Part shown: positions 4,026 to 64,000 of the stretch, one piece after another | Layout: each line of letters opens with the position of its first letter | How positions within the stretch are numbered: the stretch's first letter is position 1 | Assembly (NCBI RefSeq): GCF_030384885.1 | Contig: NZ_CP128613.1 | Source of the DNA: Escherichia coli | Lineage (GTDB): Bacteria; Pseudomonadota; Gammaproteobacteria; Enterobacterales; Enterobacteriaceae | Direction: 5' to 3' (one strand) | DNA: 64,000 nt | Made by a program: the position numbers and the translations under genes | Notes under the pieces: model-generated | Told to the model about the DNA's origin: nothing | The model's database searches: none | What the model saw: only the letters and a program-made list of their open reading frames with translations

Positions 4026-7000
4026 TTACTCGTTATCAGAACCGCCCAGACCTGCGTTCAGCAGTTCTGCCAGGCTGGCAGATGCGTCTTCTGCAGTCAC
4101 CTGCGGTGCAGCCGGAGCTTCACCCGCAGCACGGCGACGCATACGATCCTGGTGGTACGCGTAACCGGTACCTGCCGGGATCAGACGACCTACGATAACG
4201 TTCTCTTTCAGGCCGCGCAGTTCGTCGCGTTTGCCCGCAACGGCTGCTTCGGTCAGCACGCGAGTGGTCTCCTGGAACGATGCCGCGGAGATGAAGGACT
4301 CGGTTGCCAGAGACGCTTTGGTGATACCCAGCAGATCGCGGGAGTAAGTTGCACCCACTTTGCCGTTCGCTTCCAGTTCGCGGTTTGCGATCTTGACGCG
4401 AGAGTATTCAACCTGTTCACCTTCCAGGAAGTCGGAGCTGCCCGCGTTAACGATGGTAGCTTTACGCAGCATCTGACGAACGATAACTTCGATGTGTTTA
4501 TCGTTAATCTTAACGCCCTGCAGACGGTATACGTCCTGTACTTCGTTAACGATGTAACGAGTCACAGCATGAACACCACGCAGACGCAGAATGTCATGCG
4601 GCGCTTCCGGACCATCGGAAATTACGTCACCACGTTCTACACGTTCACCTTCGAACACGTTGAGCTGACGCCATTTCGGAATCATCTCTTCGTACGGCTC
4701 GCTACCGTCTACCGGGGTGATAACCAGACGACGTTTACCTTTGGTTTCTTTACCGAAGGAAACCACACCGCTGATTTCAGCCAGGATTGCCGGCTCTTTC
4801 GGACGACGTGCTTCGAACAGGTCCGCAACGCGTGGCAGACCACCGGTGATGTCCTTGGTACCGCCAGATTCTTGCGGAATACGCGCCAGGGTGTCACCAG
4901 AGCTGATCTGTACGCCATCTTCCAGCTGAACAATCGCTTTACCCGGCAGGAAGTACTGCGCAGGCATGTCGGTACCCGGGATCAGAACGTCGTTACCCTG
5001 AGCATCAACGATTTTCAGTGCCGGACGCAGATCTTTACCACCTGCGGTACGTTCTGCGGAATCCAGAACCACCAGCGAAGACAGACCGGTCAATTCGTCG
5101 GTCTGACGAGTAATGGTCTGGCCGTCGATCATGTCAGTAAAGCGTACAAAACCGCTTACTTCGGTGATAACCGGCATGGTGTGCGGGTCCCAGTTTGCAA
5201 CGGTCTCGCCGCCAGCAACCTGTTCGCCATCGCCTTTCGCCAGTACTGCACCGTAAGGCACTTTATAGCTTTCTTTGGTACGACCGAATTCGTCGATCAA
5301 TTTCAGTTCGGTGTTACGGGAAGTGATAACCAGTTTGCCGCTGGAGTTCACAACCGACTTCACGTTGCTGAGCTTGATGCTACCTTTGTTTTTCACCTGG
5401 ATGCTGGATTCAGCAGCCGCACGAGATGCCGCACCACCGATGTGGAACGTACGCATGGTCAGCTGTGTACCCGGTTCACCGATGGACTGTGCCGCGATAA
5501 CACCGATTGCTTCACCTTTGTTGATGATGTGGCCACGCGCCAGGTCACGACCGTAGCAGTGCGCACATACACCAAAGTCGGTGTCACAAGATACAACAGA
5601 ACGTACTTTTACCGCGTCGACAGAGTTCTCTTCCAGCAGGTCACACCACTGTTCGTGCAGCAGCGTGTTGCGCGGAACGAGGATATCAGCAGTACCCGGC
5701 TTCAGAACGTCTTCAGCAGTTACACGACCCAGTACGCGATCGCGCAGCGGCTCTTTAACATCACCACCTTCGATAACCGGAGTCATCATGATACCTTCAT
5801 GAGTACCACAATCGTCTTCGGTAACCACCAGGTCCTGCGCCACGTCAACCAGACGACGAGTCAGGTAACCGGAGTTCGCAGTTTTCAGTGCGGTATCCGC
5901 CAGACCTTTACGAGCACCGTGGGTTGAGATGAAGTACTGGAGTACGTTCAGACCTTCACGGAAGTTCGCGGTGATTGGCGTTTCGATGATGGAGCCATCC
6001 GGCTTCGCCATCAGACCACGCATACCCGCCAGCTGACGAATCTGTGCCGCAGAACCACGCGCACCGGAGTCGGCCATCATGTAGATGCTGTTGAAGGAAA
6101 CCTGCTTCTCTTCCTGACCGTCACGGTTAATAACGGTTTCAGTTTGCAGATTATCCATCATCGCTTTGGATACACGATCGTTCGCCGCAGCCCAGATATC
6201 GATAACTTTGTTGTAGCGTTCGCCCGCAGTTACCAGACCAGACTGGAACTGCTCCTGAATCTCAGCAACTTCAGCTTCTGCCTCGGAGATGATTTCGTGT
6301 TTCTTCTCCGGGATGACCATGTCATCGATACCAACAGATGCACCAGAACGCGCTGCATATGCAAAGCCGGTGTACATGATCTGGTCCGCAAAAATAACGG
6401 TCGGTTTCAGACCGAGAATGCGGTAGCAGGTGTTCAGCATTTTGGAGATTGCTTTCTTACCCAGCGCCTGGTTGACAATGGAGTAAGGCAGACCTTTCGG
6501 TACAATCATCCACAGAATGGCACGGCCAACGGTCGTATCTTTCAGGCTGGTTTTCGCTACTAATTCACCGTTAGCATCTTTTTCATACTCGGTGATACGC
6601 ACTTTAACGCGCGCATGCAGAGAGGCCAGACCAGAGCGATACAGACGTTCTGCTTCTTTCGGGCCAGTCAGCACCATGCCTTCGCCTTTGGCGTTAACAC
6701 AGTCACGGGTCATGTAGTACAGACCCAGTACAACGTCCTGAGACGGAACGATGATTGGTTCGCCGTTCGCCGGGGACAGGATGTTGTTGGTAGACATCAT
6801 CAGCGCACGCGCTTCCAGCTGGGCTTCCAGCGTCAGCGGTACGTGAACAGCCATCTGGTCACCATCGAAGTCGGCGTTATATGCCGCACAAACCAGCGGG
6901 TGCAGCTGGATAGCTTTACCTTCGATCAGTACCGGTTCAAATGCCTGGATACCCAGACGGTGCAGAGTCGGTGCACGGTTCAGCAGTACCGGGTGTTCGC

Positions 7001-12600: not shown

Positions 12601-12634
12601 CGCAAAAAGGCTGGTGACTAAAAAGTCACCAGCC
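12601..12634 (-). terminator. rplL-rpoB intercistronic attenuator (partial terminator)
   Basis: Perfect 10-bp inverted repeat ggctggtgac / gtcaccagcc with a 6-nt loop, followed on the minus strand by a U-run; lies between rplL and rpoB where the known attenuator sits. Confidence 0.6.
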
Positions 12635-12673
12635 ATCAGCCTGATTTCTCAGGCTGCAACCGGAAGGGTTGGC

Positions 12674-24799: not shown

Positions 24800-24983
24800 T
24801 CACAACCCGAAGATGTTTCTTGCGATTCATCATCGTGTTGCGAAAATTTGAGAGACTCACGAACAACTTTCGTTGTTCAGTGTTTCAATTTTCAGCTTGA
24901 TCCAGATTTTTAAAGAGCAAATATCTTAAACATGACTCGTAAGTCATCTTTAACGATATCAAGGTCGGCGACTTTCACTCACA

Positions 24984-29715: not shown

Positions 29716-29955
29716 TGTAAAGCATCCACAATAGAAGAAGGATGCCGCAGGCTTCATCAATATTACGCGATGATGAGAACCAGATGCGACGTTAGCCGGC
29801 AGGTCTTCGGGCTTGGAGGGGTATATAAAATACTAAGAGATGATGACTTCCCACCGGATGGCAGTGTCCGCATAACGCAATCATCGCACCTTTCCTTACC
29901 GCTGCGCGTCAGCTCCAGATTTGCACTGGATTCCCTATTAACTCACAGGACCGGC
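29716..29955 (-). ncRNA. Cobalamin (adenosylcobalamin) riboswitch in the btuB 5' leader
   Basis: About 240-nt leader; minus strand begins GCCGGTCCTGTGAGTTAATAGGGAATCCAGTGCAAATCTGGAGCTGACGCGCAGCGGTAAGGAAAGGTGCG..., matching the known btuB leader. Confidence 0.8.
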
Positions 29956-30083
29956 GAGTGGATGCTACAGGTTGTAACAAGTTGCTGTCCAGACGTAGCT
30001 CACAAATAGGAATACATCAAGATCTGGACATCTGATGAGCAATCCCTACAATCGCCGCGTACATTTCATTTTCAGGATACATC

Positions 30084-34960: not shown

Positions 34961-35073
34961 GAAACGGAGCGGCACCTCTTTTAACCCTTGAAGTCACTGC
35001 CCGTTTCGAGAGTTTCTCAACTCGAATAACTAAAGCCAACGTGAACTTTTGCGGATCTCCAGGATCCGCTTTT
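34961..35073 (+). ncRNA. oxyS: OxyS small regulatory RNA
   Basis: Reads GAAACGGAGCGGCACCTCTTTTAACCCTTGAAGTCACTGCCCGTTTCGAGAGTTTCTCAACTCG...GCGGATCTCCAGGATCCGCTTTTTTTT, matching OxyS including its terminal hairpin and U-run; divergent from oxyR. The 3' end is approximate. Confidence 0.88.
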
Positions 35074-35116
35074 TTTTATTCTACAGGCCCACAGCAAGAG
35101 AGCCTGATAGTAACAG

Positions 35117-36400
35117 TTACTCAATCCGATCTTTGACAATAAAGAAGTAACACAGCGCCCCGGTGAACGTCACACAGGCCGCGATAACCAGCGCCAGATT
35201 AAACGAGTGCGTGGTATCCACTACCCAACCGGTTACGATCGGAGCAAAGGAAGCAAAAACAAAACTGCCAAAGTTTTGAATCCCGGCGATGGAAGCCACT
35301 TTTGTTTCTGACACCATCACCTGCACCAGTCCCCATGCAGATGTTCCCGCGAAATGCACGCAGAACAGCGCCATTGAGATAAACGCTACAGCCTGGGCTG
35401 GCGAGGAGGATTGCACTACCAGCAACGTGCCTAATGCCGACATCATCAAACCGCAGACAATAGCCGTTTTACGCGTCTTCGCCAGGTCGTAGCCTTTTTT
35501 CGCCAGCCGATCGACAACAATACCGTTAACCCACATCCCGACCGCCGCCGCGAGGAAAGGAATCGCCGCCACCCAACCGGTTTTCGCCAGACTGAAGCCT
35601 TGCTCGGCTTGTAAATAACCGGGTAACCACGCGATGTAGAGCCAACCGGTATAATTGACGCCAGAGAAACCTAAAATCATCCCCCAGGTTGTCCGATGCT
35701 TAAACAGCGCCAGCCACTCGCTAAATTGTAATTGTGGACGCGGTTTAACCGGCGCGGAGAGATAGGTCCGTTCTTCGTCGGTCAGGACAAACTGCGCCCG
35801 GTTGCGATACCACGCGTACCAACAGATCCCAACCAGAATCCCCGCCACGCCGATGATGACGAACATTGCCCGCCAGCCCCATGCCAGCTGCATCAATACA
35901 AGAGCAGGAGGCGCAATAGCCTGACCGATAACGGTAGATGAGTTAAAAATCCCCAGCGCCGTGCCGCGTTCTTTTTGCGCATACCAGTCGGTGATCGACT
36001 TTACTCCCGCAGGCATAAATGGCGCTTCGCCAATACCCAGACCGATACGCATTAAAATAAAGTGGCTAAAAGAATTAACCATTCCTGTTAATGCCTGCAT
36101 TAATGACCAGAATATTAAGCCTGCGCCTAAAACTATTCGTGGGCCAAAGCGGTCTAGCAAAATACCGGAAGGGAGTTGTGAAAAACCATAAGACAGAGAA
36201 AATGCAGAAAGCAAAACGCCAAATTCTGTCGCCGATAATCCTAACTCGCCACGAATCGCTTCGCCTGCCACGCTCAATGACGAACGGTCGAGGAAATTAA
36301 CGATCCCCGCCATAAATAATAAAACCAGCGTTACTGTCTGAATACGACGAATCCGTTGCGGTTTATTACCCGCAACACTGGTTGACACATCAACGTCCAT
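35117..36400 (-). CDS. MFS transporter, anion:cation symporter (ACS) family, sugar-acid (hexuronate/aldonate) type
   Basis: 427-aa polytopic membrane protein with N-terminal ...LLFMAGIVNFLDRSSLSVAG... typical of DgoT/ExuT/GudP-like transporters; 66 nt downstream of the dehydratase gene on the same strand. Not present at this position in K-12 as I recall it. Confidence 0.8.
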   Translation of the reverse strand: MDVDVSTSVAGNKPQRIRRIQTVTLVLLFMAGIVNFLDRSSLSVAGEAIRGELGLSATEFGVLLSAFSLSYGFSQLPSGILLDRFGPRIVLGAGLIFWSLMQALTGMVNSFSHFILMRIGLGIGEAPFMPAGVKSITDWYAQKERGTALGIFNSSTVIGQAIAPPALVLMQLAWGWRAMFVIIGVAGILVGICWYAWYRNRAQFVLTDEERTYLSAPVKPRPQLQFSEWLALFKHRTTWGMILGFSGVNYTGWLYIAWLPGYLQAEQGFSLAKTGWVAAIPFLAAAVGMWVNGIVVDRLAKKGYDLAKTRKTAIVCGLMMSALGTLLVVQSSSPAQAVAFISMALFCVHFAGTSAWGLVQVMVSETKVASIAGIQNFGSFVFASFAPIVTGWVVDTTHSFNLALVIAACVTFTGALCYFFIVKDRIE

Positions 36401-36466
36401 TTTTAGCTCCTTGAGCGGAATTAATCGATTTGCTGACTATTCAGAAAATAATTAAGCGAACCGTTA

Positions 36467-37681
36467 TTACCAGTTCCACAATGTGCCATCTTCCAGTCGT
36501 GCGACGGGGAGATACGCCGGGTCATACGGATATTTCGCCGCCAGTTTCTCATCGAAAGAAATACCCAGCCCCGGTTCATCGCCTGGGTGCATATAACCTT
36601 CATCGAAGCGCCAGCTGTGCGGGAAGACTTCAAGCATTTGTTCGGAATAGCCCATGTACTCCTGAACACCAAAGTTTGGCACCCAGAGGTCAAAATGCAG
36701 CGCCGCCGCATGACAAACAGGCGATAAATCTGAAGGGCCATGCGAACCGGTACGTACCTGATAAAGCGATGCAAAATCGGCAATCCGTCGCATCCCGGTA
36801 ATGCCGCCTGCATGGGTAATCGTCGTGCGAATATAGTCAATCAGCTGCTCTTCGATTAACTGCTTGCAGTCCCAGATACTGTTAAACACTTCACCGACCG
36901 CAATCGGCGTCACAGTATGCTGGCGAATCAGACGAAAACATTCCTGGTTCTCGGCAGGCGTCGGATCTTCCATCCAGAACAGGCGGTAATCCTCTATGCT
37001 CTTCCCAAAGCGTGCCGCTTCGATAGGAGTCAGGCGATGGTGCATGTCATGCAACAGATGTTCGTTAAAACCGAACTTATTACGCACCGCTTCAAATAAC
37101 TTCGGTGTAAAATCGAGATACTTTTCTGAAGACCACAAATGCTCTTCCGGCCACAGGCCTTTGGTTGCCGGTTCATACGCCAGTCCTTTGCCCTTCGCCA
37201 GGCCATAAGTGGTTTGCATACCCGGTACACCGCACTGCACACGAATCGCCTTAAAGCCCATCTGCTGGTGCTTTGCATAGTCTTCAAGGACTTCATCAAT
37301 CGTGCGCCCGGTGGTGTGGCAATAAACCATCACGCCTTCACGAGAAGCCCCACCAAGCAGTTGATACAATGGCATATTTGCCGCTTTGGCTTTGATATCC
37401 CACAACGCCATATCAATGGCAGAAATGGCCGACATCGTGACGGGGCCACGTCGCCAGTAAGCACCTTTATAAAAGAATTGCCAGATATCTTCAATACGGC
37501 TGGCATCGCGGCCAATTAATTGTGGACAAAGATGATCTTTCAGATAAGAAGCGACCGACAATTCGCGACCATTTAATGTGGCATCTCCCAATCCACAAAG
37601 TCCGCTTGCAGTGGTTATTTTAAGCGTAACGAAATTACGTCCTGGGCAAGTAACAAAAACATCTGCAGCAATAATTTTCAT
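36467..37681 (-). CDS. Enolase-superfamily dehydratase, RspA / D-mannonate dehydratase (ManD)-like
   Basis: 404-aa product from [43 protein letters not shown]..., recognised as a close relative of starvation-sensing protein RspA; AGGAG Shine-Dalgarno 8 nt before the ATG at 37681. The ORF-track extension to 37741 is rejected. Confidence 0.82.
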
Positions 37682-38165
37682 TATTGCAATCTCCTGTGTT
37701 GTAAATAGACGCTTCAAACTTAATTTTACGCCTACTACCATACAAGAGAGAAAGAGCGATTATTCAACCGTGATCACATTAAAAATAAAAATTTCCGCCG
37801 AGGAGCCCCCCCCCCTCAAAAACCACCTGAATAATTAACCATCATCGTTAAAACAACACGTTAAATAATCACATAACAAACTCCATTAATCATTAAAAAT
37901 GAGCGCAGCAATAGAAATGAATTATATTCAATTAATTAAAATATGTATTGATTGATGTATTGAAAATATGATTTTCATGGGGAGAGTGAAGGTAAAGAAG
38001 ACGCAAGAATAAAAAGGAATATGACAAATAATAGTTCTGGTTGGGCGTTAAATTTAAGGTCACCAGAATGCTGACAAATTTCTGCCTGAGGCAGTCCGCC
38101 TACGTAGTGTCGCTACTTTATAGGCGTGGTAAGCTCCCCATTTTCAGGGGAGCAATATAAACCAA

Positions 38166-39539
38166 TTACCCCAACCGCGCCTGCGCAAAAGCAATCGCCT
38201 GCGCCACCTGCTGCGGTGAGACGCCGCCTTTTGCCGCACGCTTGTCGAGGCACGATTGCAGCGACAGAATCGGATAGACATCTTCGCCAATCACCTGACT
38301 GAATTTCTGCAACTCACTGAGCGGCAGTTCTTCCAGCGGTTTGCCCTGACGAATGGCTTCCACCACCGCTTCACCCACAATATGATGCGCCTCGCGGAAA
38401 GGTACGCCTTTCGCCACCAGGTAATCCGCCAGTTCAGTGGCGTTGGCGTAACCCTGCTGAGCCGCTTCCTGGCAACGCGGACGTTTCACCTGAATCCCGT
38501 CCAGCACCAGCGCCGCCATATGCAGGCAGTCCAGCCAGGTATCGAGCGCGTCGAACAGACCTTCTTTATCTTCCTGCATATCTTTGTTATAGGCCAGCGG
38601 CAGACCTTTCAGCGTCATCATCATGCCGGTCAACGCGCCCTGAACACGACCGCATTTACCCCGAATCAGCTCCAGCGCATCCGGGTTTTTCTTCTGCGGC
38701 ATTAATGATGAACCGGAAGTAACACGATCAGAAAGCTCCACAAAACCCGCTTCGCCGGTGTTAAAGAAAATCAGATCTTCGGCAAAACGCGACAAATGCA
38801 CCATACCGATAGCGGCGGCAGAAAGCAGTTCCAGCACGTGGTCGCGGTCAGAAACGCTGTCGAGACTGTTACGGGTCGCCGAGGCAAAGCCCAGCCAGCC
38901 TGCTAACTGTTCACGGTCGATTTCATAGGCCGTTCCCGCCAGTGCGCCACAGCCTAACGGGCTGACATCCAGACGCTTAAGCGCATCCTGCAAACGGCTT
39001 TCATCACGCGCCAGCATCTCAACATAGGCCAGGCACCAGTGCGCAAACGTCACCGGCTGGGCGCGTTGCAGGTGAGTGTAACCAGGCATTACCGCGTCCT
39101 GATTATTCTGCGCGGTCTCGACCAGAGCGGATTGTAACTGTCGGTTAGCCGTCAGCAACTCGCTAACGGTATCCTTGCACCACAGTTTCAGGTCAGTCGC
39201 TACCTGATCATTACGGCTACGCCCGGTATGCAATTTTTTGCCTAACTGGCCCACTTTGTCGATCAGTTTGCCTTCCACCCAGCTATGGATATCTTCGGCG
39301 TCGCTTTCAAGAATTTGTTGTGGCCTGGCGCGAACATCTTCCAGCAGCACATTGAGCGCCTCTTCCAGTTGCACCTGTTCTTCTGCGGTTAACACGCCTA
39401 CCGTTACCAGCGCTTTGGACCAGGCCACAGAGCCAACAATATCCTGCTCCGCCAGACGGTAATCAAAGCGCAGTGAGTCGTTGAATTGTTTAAACCGTTG
39501 ATCTGCTGCCTGGGTAAAACGCCCGCCCCAAAGTGCCAT
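38166..39539 (-). CDS. argH: Argininosuccinate lyase
   Basis: 457-aa product [42 protein letters not shown]... Confidence 0.96.
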
Positions 39540-39599
39540 AACTCTGTTTCCTTATTTTGAAATTCAATGCCAGAAAGCTACGTCTCCGGCCAACAAAAC

Positions 39600-40376
39600 T
39601 TAAGCTAAAATCCGCGTACCCATCGGCATACCGTTAAACAGTGCCGGAAGCTGTTCCGCATGACGCCAGGAGGCAATATCTACCGGGCGACCCAGCGTGC
39701 GCGCAGCGTCCAGCGCCGCGTTCACTTTCACTATCATGCCGTCAGTAATAATGCCCTGCTCAATCAGTTGTTCTGCTTTCGCTGCGGTCATTTCGGCAAT
39801 ACGTTGCCCTTTGCCGTCGAGAATACCGCTGACATCAGAGAGCAAAATCAGATCCGCGCCCAGCGTTGCCGCCAGCGCCGTCGCCGCCTGGTCAGCATTG
39901 ACGTTCATCAGTTGCCCTTCGTCCGTTACGCCAATGGAGCTGACCACTGGTAGATAACCGTTTTCCAGCAACGTGTTGATAAGCTTAGGCGAACCTGGCT
40001 GCGCCAGTCCAACATGGCCTAACTCTTCATCGAGCTGGGTCACTTTTACGCTGTCGCCGTCACCGAGAAACAAACCTACGGCTGCAATCTGATGTTTCTT
40101 CGCCCATGCCAGCAGGGTTTTATTTGCCGTTCCCGCCAGCGCTCCGGTGATAATGTCTATCTGATCCGCAGGCGTCACCCGCAGGCCGTTTTTCTTTTTC
40201 ACCGGCAGATTCAGTCCTTTCATCAGCTCATCCACCACGCAGCCGCCGCCGTGGACAATCACCAGCGGACGCTGATGTGACTCGCGATAATTCACCAGGG
40301 CGCTAAACAGACGTTCCAGCGCCTCTTCACTATCCAGCAGTACGCCGCCCAGTTTGATAATTAATGGATTCATCAT
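39600..40376 (-). CDS. argB: Acetylglutamate kinase
   Basis: 258-aa product from [24 protein letters not shown]...; the 11-codon upstream extension is rejected. Confidence 0.92.
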
Positions 40377-42696: not shown

Positions 42697-42800
42697 GTAG
42701 TCCGGATAAGGCGCTCGCGCCGCATCCGGCACTGTTGCCAAACTCCAGCACCGCAATAATGTCGGATGCGATGCTTGCGCATCTTATCCGACCTACACCT
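42697..42800. repeat. REP/BIME repetitive extragenic palindromes between argE and ppc
   Basis: Two canonical REP units (gtagtccggataaggcgctcgcgccgcatccggcact and tgtcggatgcgatgcttgcgcatcttatccgacctac). Confidence 0.65.
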
Positions 42801-60057: not shown

Positions 60058-62292
<2,235 letters not shown>

Positions 62293-62565
62293 TTATAATT
62301 GAATTAATCCACGGATGCGATAGTTGAGATCTTACATATTGTTGGTTAAAGAGATGTAGATCAAATTGATCGTAATTAAGACTTTTTGATTATGTCCGAT
62401 TTCGGACAAATGCTTTATAAAAAAGGTTTTAGCTTCGTAAGCTTCAAGAAATGAGGGAGAAAACAAGGCTGACTACCTTATTTTCTCACTCGCATTTCGA
62501 GGCAGCATTTTGTGCTCTGTTTAAAATTTGTGATCACAGTGTGATTTTCACAAAAGGCGCACTAT

Positions 62566-63545: not shown

Positions 63546-63808
63546 GAAGGGCGTCAACCGAAAAATGACCAATGATGGTGAGGAAAAATCAGGGAAGATG
63601 AAAAAAATTCAGGATAAAGGCCAAAGTTCCTCGTACCTGAACATGTGGAATATACCTCATTTAAGATGATATTTATTTGTTTAATTATTTTTTCTATTAA
63701 CCGGTGCAACGAGTGTTAAAGCGTGTAATTTTAGGATTATATCAATAGTCACGGTTATACAAACAGTGATAATTTATGAAATAATTTTATTTACCAGAGG
63801 AATAGCGC

Positions 63809-64000
63809 ATGTATCTTAATACTCAAGTTCAATATAATAAGTTAAATAAAGATGAAAAAAAGATCCTGTTGTTACAAAAGCTAGCCCATTTAACTGATTT
63901 TACTTTTGACAGAATAGAGACATTTTCAGCATTTGGACAATCTACTGAAACAGGTGTTTTTAAATATAAAGATGGCAATGAATTTGTTGTTGTCCCCGGG
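63809..64000 (+). CDS. Hypothetical protein, N-terminal fragment (runs off the window); AT-rich, probably accessory
   Basis: ATG at 63809 with AGAGGA Shine-Dalgarno 8 nt upstream; open for 64 codons to the window end (MYLNTQVQYNKLNKDEKKILLLQKLAHLTDFTFDRIETFSAFGQSTETGVFKYKDGNEFVVVPG); base composition and codon usage are markedly AT-rich relative to the rest of the window. No family recognised. Confidence 0.4.
   Translation, partial: MYLNTQVQYNKLNKDEKKILLLQKLAHLTDFTFDRIETFSAFGQSTETGVFKYKDGNEFVVVPG

Follow-up and report, generated by a model that had tools for sequence, protein, structure and literature searches.

Expression of rspA in Escherichia coli is repressed by RspR, and derepression is seen in an rspR mutant (PMC8249747). 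The footprint of RspR at the E. coli rspA promoter covers 31 bp and has the palindrome ATACnnGTAT at its centre, and the transcription start of rspA has been mapped 30 nt upstream of the ATG codon (PMC8249747); a CRP site at rspA has been given as known (bioRxiv 10.1101/2025.05.13.653802). With respect to 3' ends, those of Rho-dependent transcripts lie at stable stem-loops that lack U-tracts, and C exceeds G just downstream (Dar and Sorek 2018, PMC6061677); REP elements located between tandem genes have been described as stabilisers of mRNA and as terminators that depend in part on Rho (bioRxiv 10.64898/2026.03.23.713779). The noncoding gap between argH and the D-mannonate dehydratase gene manD in the window (the whole stretch of 64,000 nucleotides of E. 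coli DNA that was analysed) is probably a composite spacer, made up of the 3' end of argCBH and a manD promoter of the rspA family.

The minus strand of the window carries, in this order, argC, argB, argH, the gap, manD and a gene for an MFS transporter, after which come oxyS (on the plus strand) and oxyR (Table 1). Two genes only, manD and the transporter gene, constitute an islet that is bounded by the oxyS terminator on one side and by the stop codon of argH on the other, and the original prediction that this accessory operon has no regulator gene is borne out by the content of the DNA between oxyS and argH. The islet form has 3.09 kb of replacement DNA (35078..38165) where the K-12-type junction has approximately 54 bp. 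Approximately 1,714 of 5,426 complete E. coli genomes contain the islet, with upstream DNA that is 90-99% identical, and it occurs, with the common allele of the gap, in Nissle 1917 and in the E. coli type strain (ATCC 11775). In approximately 146 genomes a DeoR-regulated sugar module is located between argH and manD (the big-island form), and one genome has an IS1-mediated deletion. E. whittamii also carries the islet, and its copy diverges from that of E. coli by 7% overall and by 20% at third codon positions; this species-level divergence indicates that the islet is ancient, not a recent import. When the gap was sought at 80 loci encoding ManD/RspA homologues, E. whittamii alone was found to share it. 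A literature search on the islet, on ManD in CFT073 or UPEC, and on transcripts yielded nothing specific to the islet.

The gap extends from 37682 to 38165 and is 484 bp long, because manD starts at the ATG at 37679-37681, as annotated in RefSeq, and 80 of 80 homologues align over residues 1-404; the point for annotation is that the manD start is 37681. The gap had been predicted to exist, as it does, but at a length of 424 bp, which results from placing the start of the dehydratase at the first ATG in frame (37741). It is genuinely AT-rich and poor in ORFs: the GC content is 36%, whether 424 or 484 bp are counted, versus 52% for the window, and declines to 27% over 37830-38060 (231 bp). Among the 21 ORF-free gaps of the window this one has the lowest GC content, and only 0.17% of 230-bp windows have a GC content of 28% or less. 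Inside the gap there is no ORF of 60 codons or more, as originally stated. An ORF of 86 amino acids on the plus strand (37578..37838) enters the gap from within manD.

Table 1. Features of the argH-oxyS interval of the window; strand is that of the feature.
Feature	Coordinates	Strand	Remarks
oxyS	34961..35070	+	OxyS Rfam match, 139 bits
MFS transporter gene	35117..36400	-	D-galactonate transporter subfamily; second and last gene of the islet
manD (D-mannonate dehydratase)	36467..37681	-	Enolase superfamily; RefSeq, 404 aa
Shine-Dalgarno sequence AGGAG	37691-37695	-	9 nt upstream of the manD ATG
Predicted -10 hexamer TAAGTT	37717-37722	-	17 bp after TTGTAT; positional homology with the rspA promoter
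rspA-family core motif TCTCTTGTATGGTAGT	37734..37749	-	Invariant in all islet alleles
Predicted -35 hexamer TTGTAT	37740-37745	-	Within the core motif
CRP-like site TAATGTGATCACGGTTGAATAA	37760..37781	-	Perfect left half-site; 13 of 22 positions match the consensus
Weak inverted repeat GAGG...CCTC	37800..37817	-	Loop is the G10 run (37806-37815) in this strain; fold z = -0.8 to -1.7
Invariant 33-bp block TTTGTTATGTGATTATTTAACGTGTTGTTTTAA	37848..37880		Identical in all 35 islet sequences that contain the position
AT-rich spacer	37885..38075 (191 bp)		29% GC; near-neutral drift
C-rich, G-poor untranslated tract	37907..38060	- (argH/manD sense)	19-29% C, 3-6% G
Decayed REP element	38082..38126	-	Two small hairpins, 38097-38126 and 38082-38094
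argH 3' stem-loop GCTCCCC-N7-GGGGAGC	38133..38153	-	-16.8 kcal/mol, z = -4.0; kept in E. coli alleles and in E. whittamii
argH (argininosuccinate lyase)	38166..39539	-	Last gene of argCBH; its stop codon is the upstream edge of the spacer

The product of manD, which matches the NCBIfam ManD equivalog, is paralogous to RspA and shares 91-94% of its amino acids with the RspA proteins of Enterobacterales; at the DNA level, manD is approximately 80% identical to enterobacterial rspA and to the rspA gene of E. coli itself. Orthologues of the islet transporter (84-89%) adjoin rspA in several genera, in either order. These two lines of evidence, the similarity of ManD to RspA and the transporter orthologues next to rspA, indicate that the islet arose long ago as a paralogous offshoot of the rspA locus. 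The possibility that the islet transporter corresponds to YdfJ of the rsp region was rejected, the identity being just 21%. Both islet genes have a host-like GC content (50-51%).

The manD-proximal 120 bp of the gap is, judging by its sequence, a homologue of the rspA promoter, and presumably has promoter activity. The core CTTGTATGGTAG is kept in 77 of the 79 rspA loci outside the islet, with the palindrome ATACnnGTAT in register in 70 of the 79, and of the 71 rspA loci in which both elements were found, 70 have TGTGA at a distance of 32-33 nt from the core, on its upstream side. Upstream of manD, the core is present as CTTGTATGGTAG(T) at 37734-37746, 65 nt from the ATG, and lies 32 nt downstream of a TGTGA element (TGTGATCA, 37771-37778). 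Conservation within the islet was assessed by alignment of ten E. coli alleles, E. whittamii and the big-island form. Neither TGTGATC nor CTTGTATGGTAGT varies in alignment A2, and both are in register with the rspA loci; the promoter and untranslated region are 95-100% identical across alleles, whereas third codon positions of manD differ by 6-20%. The predicted transcription start of manD is near 37710, which would give a 5' untranslated region of approximately 29 nt. Thus, the gap does include the promoter region of the operon, as had been suggested for the gap as a whole; its distal AT-rich part is better read as a zone of argCBH termination and insulation (see below). A scan for the sigma-70 consensus called no promoter in the gap, and the scores of an approximate sigma-70 position weight matrix (PWM) were near background; empty scans are expected of an activator-dependent promoter, and do not constitute positive evidence for one.

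The centre of the CRP-like site is approximately -60.5 from the predicted transcription start, which is class I geometry. The right half of the site is poor, TGTGATC alone being conserved across species, and a factor other than CRP could act there; the islet operon is putatively under CRP control. The RspR box of the islet is degenerate (TCTCTTGTAT versus ATACTTGTAT in rspA), matching the palindrome at 7 of 10 positions: the left half ATAC has become TCTC in all islet alleles. Because the left half is replaced in every allele, control of the islet by RspR has probably been weakened or lost. No local regulator gene is needed, since the regulators of the rspA family, CRP and the GntR-type repressor RspR, act in trans: CRP is universal, and rspR, which 5,417 of 5,426 E. 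coli genomes carry, belongs to the core. With its palindrome broken, RspR is a weaker case than CRP for this argument. The regulator gene of rspA in K-12 is likewise not adjacent to its target (PMC8249747).

Besides the argH tail, the only strong fold signal of the gap is over the manD start (z = -3.8 to -3.9). Here, base pairing is possible between TCTCTTGT (37742-37749), which is specific to the islet, and the Shine-Dalgarno region ACAGGAGA (z = -3.8); because TCTCTTGT is upstream of the predicted transcription start, this pairing would take place in read-through transcripts only. The pairing region is invariant, and so displays no covariation.

Strong constraint acts on a 33-bp block located approximately 140-170 bp upstream of the predicted start. 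Each of the 16 genome-derived sequences (15 fetched loci and the window) has the full 33-mer without a change, and 20 metagenome contigs, all of the islet type and 19 of them independent of the 16, match a 27-nt core of it exactly; an invariant run as long as the block was obtained in none of 5,000 permutations. There are no approximate copies of the block in the fetched loci, and a scan of metagenomes with the 27-mer found E. coli-type islet contigs only. The islet and the big-island form are homologous from the block onwards, the boundary lying exactly there, at 37884. The block contains a second TGTGA, approximately 95 bp (about nine helical turns) upstream of the promoter-proximal TGTGA, and contains no second CRP half-site; comparison by eye with a set of operator consensus sequences revealed no match. 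Another factor may bind the block, which would then serve as a distal operator or an activator site, and together with the altered RspR box the block marks the informative spots for regulation of the islet.

The most variable part of the gap (65-89%) is the stretch of 64 bp that separates the block from the promoter, and on the other side of the block the AT-rich spacer differs by at least 16% in comparisons for which the block is 100% identical. This spacer is 84% identical to that of E. whittamii, versus 80% for manD third codon positions, and is barely alignable with the big-island form (55% in the alignment, 68% over 132 bp by BLAST). Derivation of the block or spacer from a decayed ynfA, the gene upstream of rspA, was considered and rejected as a chance resemblance: a match of 14 out of 15 nt to the start of ynfA is in the wrong orientation, and the BLASTN E values are 1.5-4. 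Derivation of the distal spacer of the window from a decayed copy of oxyS is not supported (Smith-Waterman alignment versus shuffles, p ~0.27). A decayed oxyS copy occurs in the big-island form.

Invariance of the block might also be expected if manD had a second promoter farther upstream, or a long regulatory leader of 150-230 nt that includes the block. A perfect TATAAT is present at 37921-37926, within a stretch (37920-37940) that is invariant among E. coli alleles; TGn-GATTAT is present at 37865-37873; and a transcript started upstream would contain both TCTCTTGT and the ACAGGAGA with which it pairs (z = -3.8). The existence of such a promoter or leader is nevertheless unlikely: the PWM scores of 8-9 are near the median of the best scores of random 560-bp segments, E. 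whittamii has TATGAT, the predicted fold partner of the block is in the most variable segment and exhibits no compensating changes, and the block has no Rfam match. Similarly low in probability is a two-part proposal: that control of the islet passed, once the RspR half-site had been lost, to another factor that binds the block, and that the TCTC in place of that half-site acts as an anti-Shine-Dalgarno sequence, silencing translation of manD on argCBH read-through. If this proposal were true, only transcripts from the manD operon's own promoter would be translated. The preferred reading remains an rspA-type promoter in the proximal 120 bp.

Where this strain has its run of ten G residues, most alleles have GGGTGTTTTTT. 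The alleles form a series (G3TGT6, G6T5, G9T, G10, G8) with T6/T7 variation as well, and four near-identical sequences, which differ in total length by 1-3 bp, have the G10, G9, G8 and G6 alleles. Such differences in run length among close relatives (G10, G9T, G8, G6T5), along with the short distances from the run downstream to the CRP-like 22-mer (22 bp) and to its TGTGA (28 bp), could be taken for signs of a contingency (phase-variation) tract, at which slipped-strand mispairing shifts the geometry of the promoter. This is very improbable, however: a long G run is limited to the window plus three genomes, with GGGT(G/A)T6-7 in more than 1,700 genomes and in 20 metagenome contigs; homopolymer length is prone to error in assemblies; and the 33-bp block is the only upstream element to which spacing could be relevant. 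The weak GAGG...CCTC hairpin that surrounds the run was also considered as a terminator and was rejected, being no better than shuffles.

A leader peptide or an unannotated small RNA had also been proposed for the gap. The two short ORFs on which attention had been focused (37899-37955, 18 codons; 38021-38074, 17 codons) do exist, but the AAGGA reported approximately 4 nt before the second of them actually ends 2 nt before its ATG, and neither has a usable Shine-Dalgarno sequence. The first is intact in most alleles but begins with ATA in four, and no Shine-Dalgarno sequence precedes it; the second has an ATG start in the window type only and GTG in the others, and has lost its stop codon in E. 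whittamii. A third, a minus-strand ORF of 43 codons, is frameshifted in five alleles. Differences between alleles in these ORFs are nearly all nonsynonymous. The search of Rfam suggested by the original prediction was performed with Rfam 15, permissively for 36000-40000 and with the gathering threshold for the whole window; no family matched in 37682-38165 at E <= 1, and OxyS was recovered as a positive control. In the AT-rich core (37840-38060), folding on either strand gave z = -2.1 to +1.8, which is no structure above that of shuffles, and no terminator-like site was found. Thus, even though the first ORF is intact in most alleles and the region is long for a simple spacer, it is very improbable that the AT-rich core encodes a small RNA, a small protein or a leader peptide, given the lack of Rfam matches, fold signals and terminator-like sites, the lack of workable Shine-Dalgarno spacing, the mostly amino-acid-changing substitutions and the loss of starts, stops and frames. 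The gap should not be annotated with a small RNA or a small ORF.

In line with the nucleoid-protein-silenced promoter of the original prediction, the same AT-rich DNA might be a nucleation site for H-NS or StpA that keeps the acquired manD operon off until a counter-silencer acts. Its composition would suit such a function: the 191 bp at 29% GC and the 231 bp at 27% GC, as against 52% for the window, are its lowest-GC intergenic stretch. In addition, the locus is accessory, and there are many weak promoter-like sites on both strands, as is usual in AT-rich DNA. Silencing of this kind is a possibility, but a less likely one, because the islet genes have the GC content of the host, the islet is old and shared with E. 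whittamii, and the AT-rich stretch evolves neutrally in sequence. A scan for the high-affinity H-NS motif TCGATAAATT yielded just two weak matches in the gap, each with two mismatches, and is uninformative. H-NS silencing is compatible with the composite spacer reading rather than exclusive of it. A literature search for H-NS ChIP data on the region found none.

At the argH end, a 7-bp GC-rich stem immediately follows the stop codon and is itself followed by UUACC, not by a U-run. Of the two hairpins originally described, gctcccc/ggggagc is exactly at 38133-38153, whereas ctgcc-tga-ggcag, at 38082-38094, had been placed 2 nt away; compared with shuffles, the hairpin region has fold z = -3.0 to -5.2. 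The former hairpin, which had been thought possibly to be the argH terminator, is indeed a stem-loop at the 3' end of argH, but for want of a U-run it is not a classical intrinsic terminator, and a scan for intrinsic terminators called none in the gap with either the window allele or the common allele. It is likely to be the protective 3' end of the argCBH mRNA. The REP element next to it has a 12-bp deletion in the window relative to the intact REP of most alleles (alignment A1), and this deletion is what creates the ctgcc/ggcag hairpin. The intact allele (42 nt) is a member of a dispersed family, to which it matched at 22-72 places or more in each of 5,425 genomes, and E. whittamii has a pair of REPs at the same place.

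Downstream of these hairpins the RNA would be exceptionally rich in C and poor in G. The C/G ratio is 4-8.5 in 78-nt windows, for which the 99.9th percentile is 3.4, and there is no other such stretch on the strand in 64 kb. The skew is retained in all E. coli alleles (8.5-18) despite drift of the sequence; in the big-island form and in E. whittamii it is less pronounced (3.2). In composition the tract is like a Rho utilisation site, which makes it a candidate for Rho-dependent termination of transcripts that read through from argCBH. The order of elements, namely a stem-loop (z = -4.0) without a U-tract and then C-rich and G-poor RNA, in which no ORF is conserved, corresponds to that described for Rho-dependent 3' ends of E. 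coli (PMC6061677). Because the genes are in tandem, argCBH must be insulated from manD, and the stem-loop, the REP and the excess of C over G suggest that the distal part, about one to two thirds of the gap, is a zone of argCBH termination and insulation. Insertion of the islet removed the native intrinsic terminator of argH, and the arrangement of stem-loop, REP and Rho-type tract appears to make good this loss at the junction.

In the mechanism proposed, the argH-proximal 90 bp, with the stem-loop that lacks a U-run and the decayed REP, followed by the approximately 150 nt of C-rich, G-poor RNA, would probably end and stabilise the argCBH transcript via Rho and shield manD from read-through. 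The manD-proximal 120 bp would act as an rspA-type promoter, with its CRP-type half-site, TTGTAT, TAAGTT and AGGAG, and the manD operon would be served in trans by CRP and perhaps by RspR. The intervening AT-rich DNA, which has no conserved peptide or recognisable RNA, shows near-neutral drift. A small accessory operon may thus work without a regulator of its own by means of an rspA-family promoter that host factors can read. The gap is an ordinary one, its promoter being a recognisable paralogue of a characterised promoter, and the overall picture would not surprise a specialist.

The K-12-type argH-oxyS junction occupies the same chromosomal position between the same flanking argH and oxyS sequences, but has a canonical intrinsic argH terminator within its approximately 54 bp, whereas there is none after argH in the islet form. 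The islet resembles the Rho-dependent 3' ends of Dar and Sorek (2018) in its stem-loop without a U-tract and its excess of C over G downstream, although the skew is far stronger than the 'mild enrichment' that is seen genome-wide; it resembles REP/BIME terminators in having a REP after a stem-loop between tandem genes, although the REP of this strain is truncated. With acquired genes silenced by H-NS the islet has in common an AT-rich tract upstream of the promoter and an accessory location, but its genes are ancient and host-like in GC content. With rspA of K-12 and other Enterobacterales (rspAB, with RspR = YdfH), it shares TGTGATC and the CTTGTATGGTAGT core at a spacing of 32 nt, and the distance of the core from the ATG (65 nt) is similar in both. 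It differs from rspA in the sequence downstream of the core and upstream of the CRP-like site, which is unrelated, and in its neighbours, having neither ynfA upstream nor rspB downstream, the MFS transporter gene being next instead. The hexamers of the rspA promoter are TTGTAT-18 bp-TAGATT, and those predicted from it by position for the islet are TTGTAT-17 bp-TAAGTT.

The argH-oxyS junction (window 35078-38165) is a hotspot that takes at least four forms among the compared genomes: an empty one, the islet of manD and the MFS transporter gene, a 13-kb island, and a deletion mediated by IS1 (see table). No direct repeats were seen flanking the islet at its edges. In its big-island form, found in about 146 genomes, the argH-oxyR hotspot carries a decayed second OxyS-like copy between an FGGY-kinase gene and the upstream region of manD, as in the fetched locus L085 and also in L116 and L117 (35.5 bits, E = 8.6e-5 against the Rfam OxyS model, below its gathering score of 75). 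The true oxyS is 3 kb from this copy. The arrangement suggests that the locus was built by insertions adjoining oxyS, and that oxyS was duplicated in the process.

The spacer upstream of manD (the gap, 37682-38165) has a strand asymmetry that reverses within it: the + strand of 37801-37902 is rich in C and poor in G (C/G of at least 4), mirroring the - strand of 37907-38060. Since the asymmetry flips between these two tracts, the gap is, judged by base composition, rut-like against incoming transcription from either direction. Across near-identical strains, a homopolymer tract lengthens stepwise from the common GGGTGTTTTTT to G6T5, G9T, and then either G10 (the allele of the window) or G8 (strain 2013C-4282). 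This growth looks like T-to-G conversion beside the G run followed by slippage, and homopolymer assembly error could be part of the tract-length differences.

The manD reading frame remains open for 20 codons 5' of its annotated start, up to an ATG at 37741 (36467-37741) that overlaps the core of the predicted promoter, and longest-ORF callers will wrongly place the manD start there. A long hairpin predicted at 37660-37759 (- strand; z = -3.8) pairs the Shine-Dalgarno sequence of manD with the promoter's -35 region (TCTCTTGT), and the predicted fold includes a second, AU-rich stem of 8 bp with the AUG within it; such a hairpin would be restricted to transcripts begun upstream of the predicted promoter. 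The annotation of strain STEC17-183 (NZ_CP075652.1) lists manD as a pseudogene with a frameshift, and the same allele has an argH 3' stem-loop weakened by two changes.

Elsewhere in the window, a second strongly AT-rich stretch occupies the end (63560-64000, GC down to 25%), and in a 327-bp intergenic region there (62239-62565) GC stands at 37% and C outnumbers G 3.2-fold on the sense strand. A REP consensus pattern had a sole match in the window, between argE and ppc. The P26, StyR-44 and cobalamin riboswitch elements are all expected for this region of the E. coli chromosome.

Features of the junction, its comparison loci and the remainder of the window
Feature	Location	Strand	Description
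Homopolymer	window 37806-37815		C10 on +, G10 on -
Empty junction			K-12 type, about 54 bp
manD-MFS islet	window 35078-38165		
13-kb island			DeoR/ABC-transporter/kinase/epimerase module plus manD-MFS
IS1-mediated deletion	L084		MFS gene truncated
Decayed second OxyS-like copy	L085 (NZ_AP022049.1) 4773-4895	+	Rfam OxyS
REP-like element	window 42765-42796	+	argE-ppc intergenic region; REP consensus pattern
P26	window 12608-12669	-	Rfam gathering-score match
StyR-44	window 24807-24915	-	Rfam gathering-score match; within rrn operon
Cobalamin riboswitch	window 29781-29970		upstream of btuB
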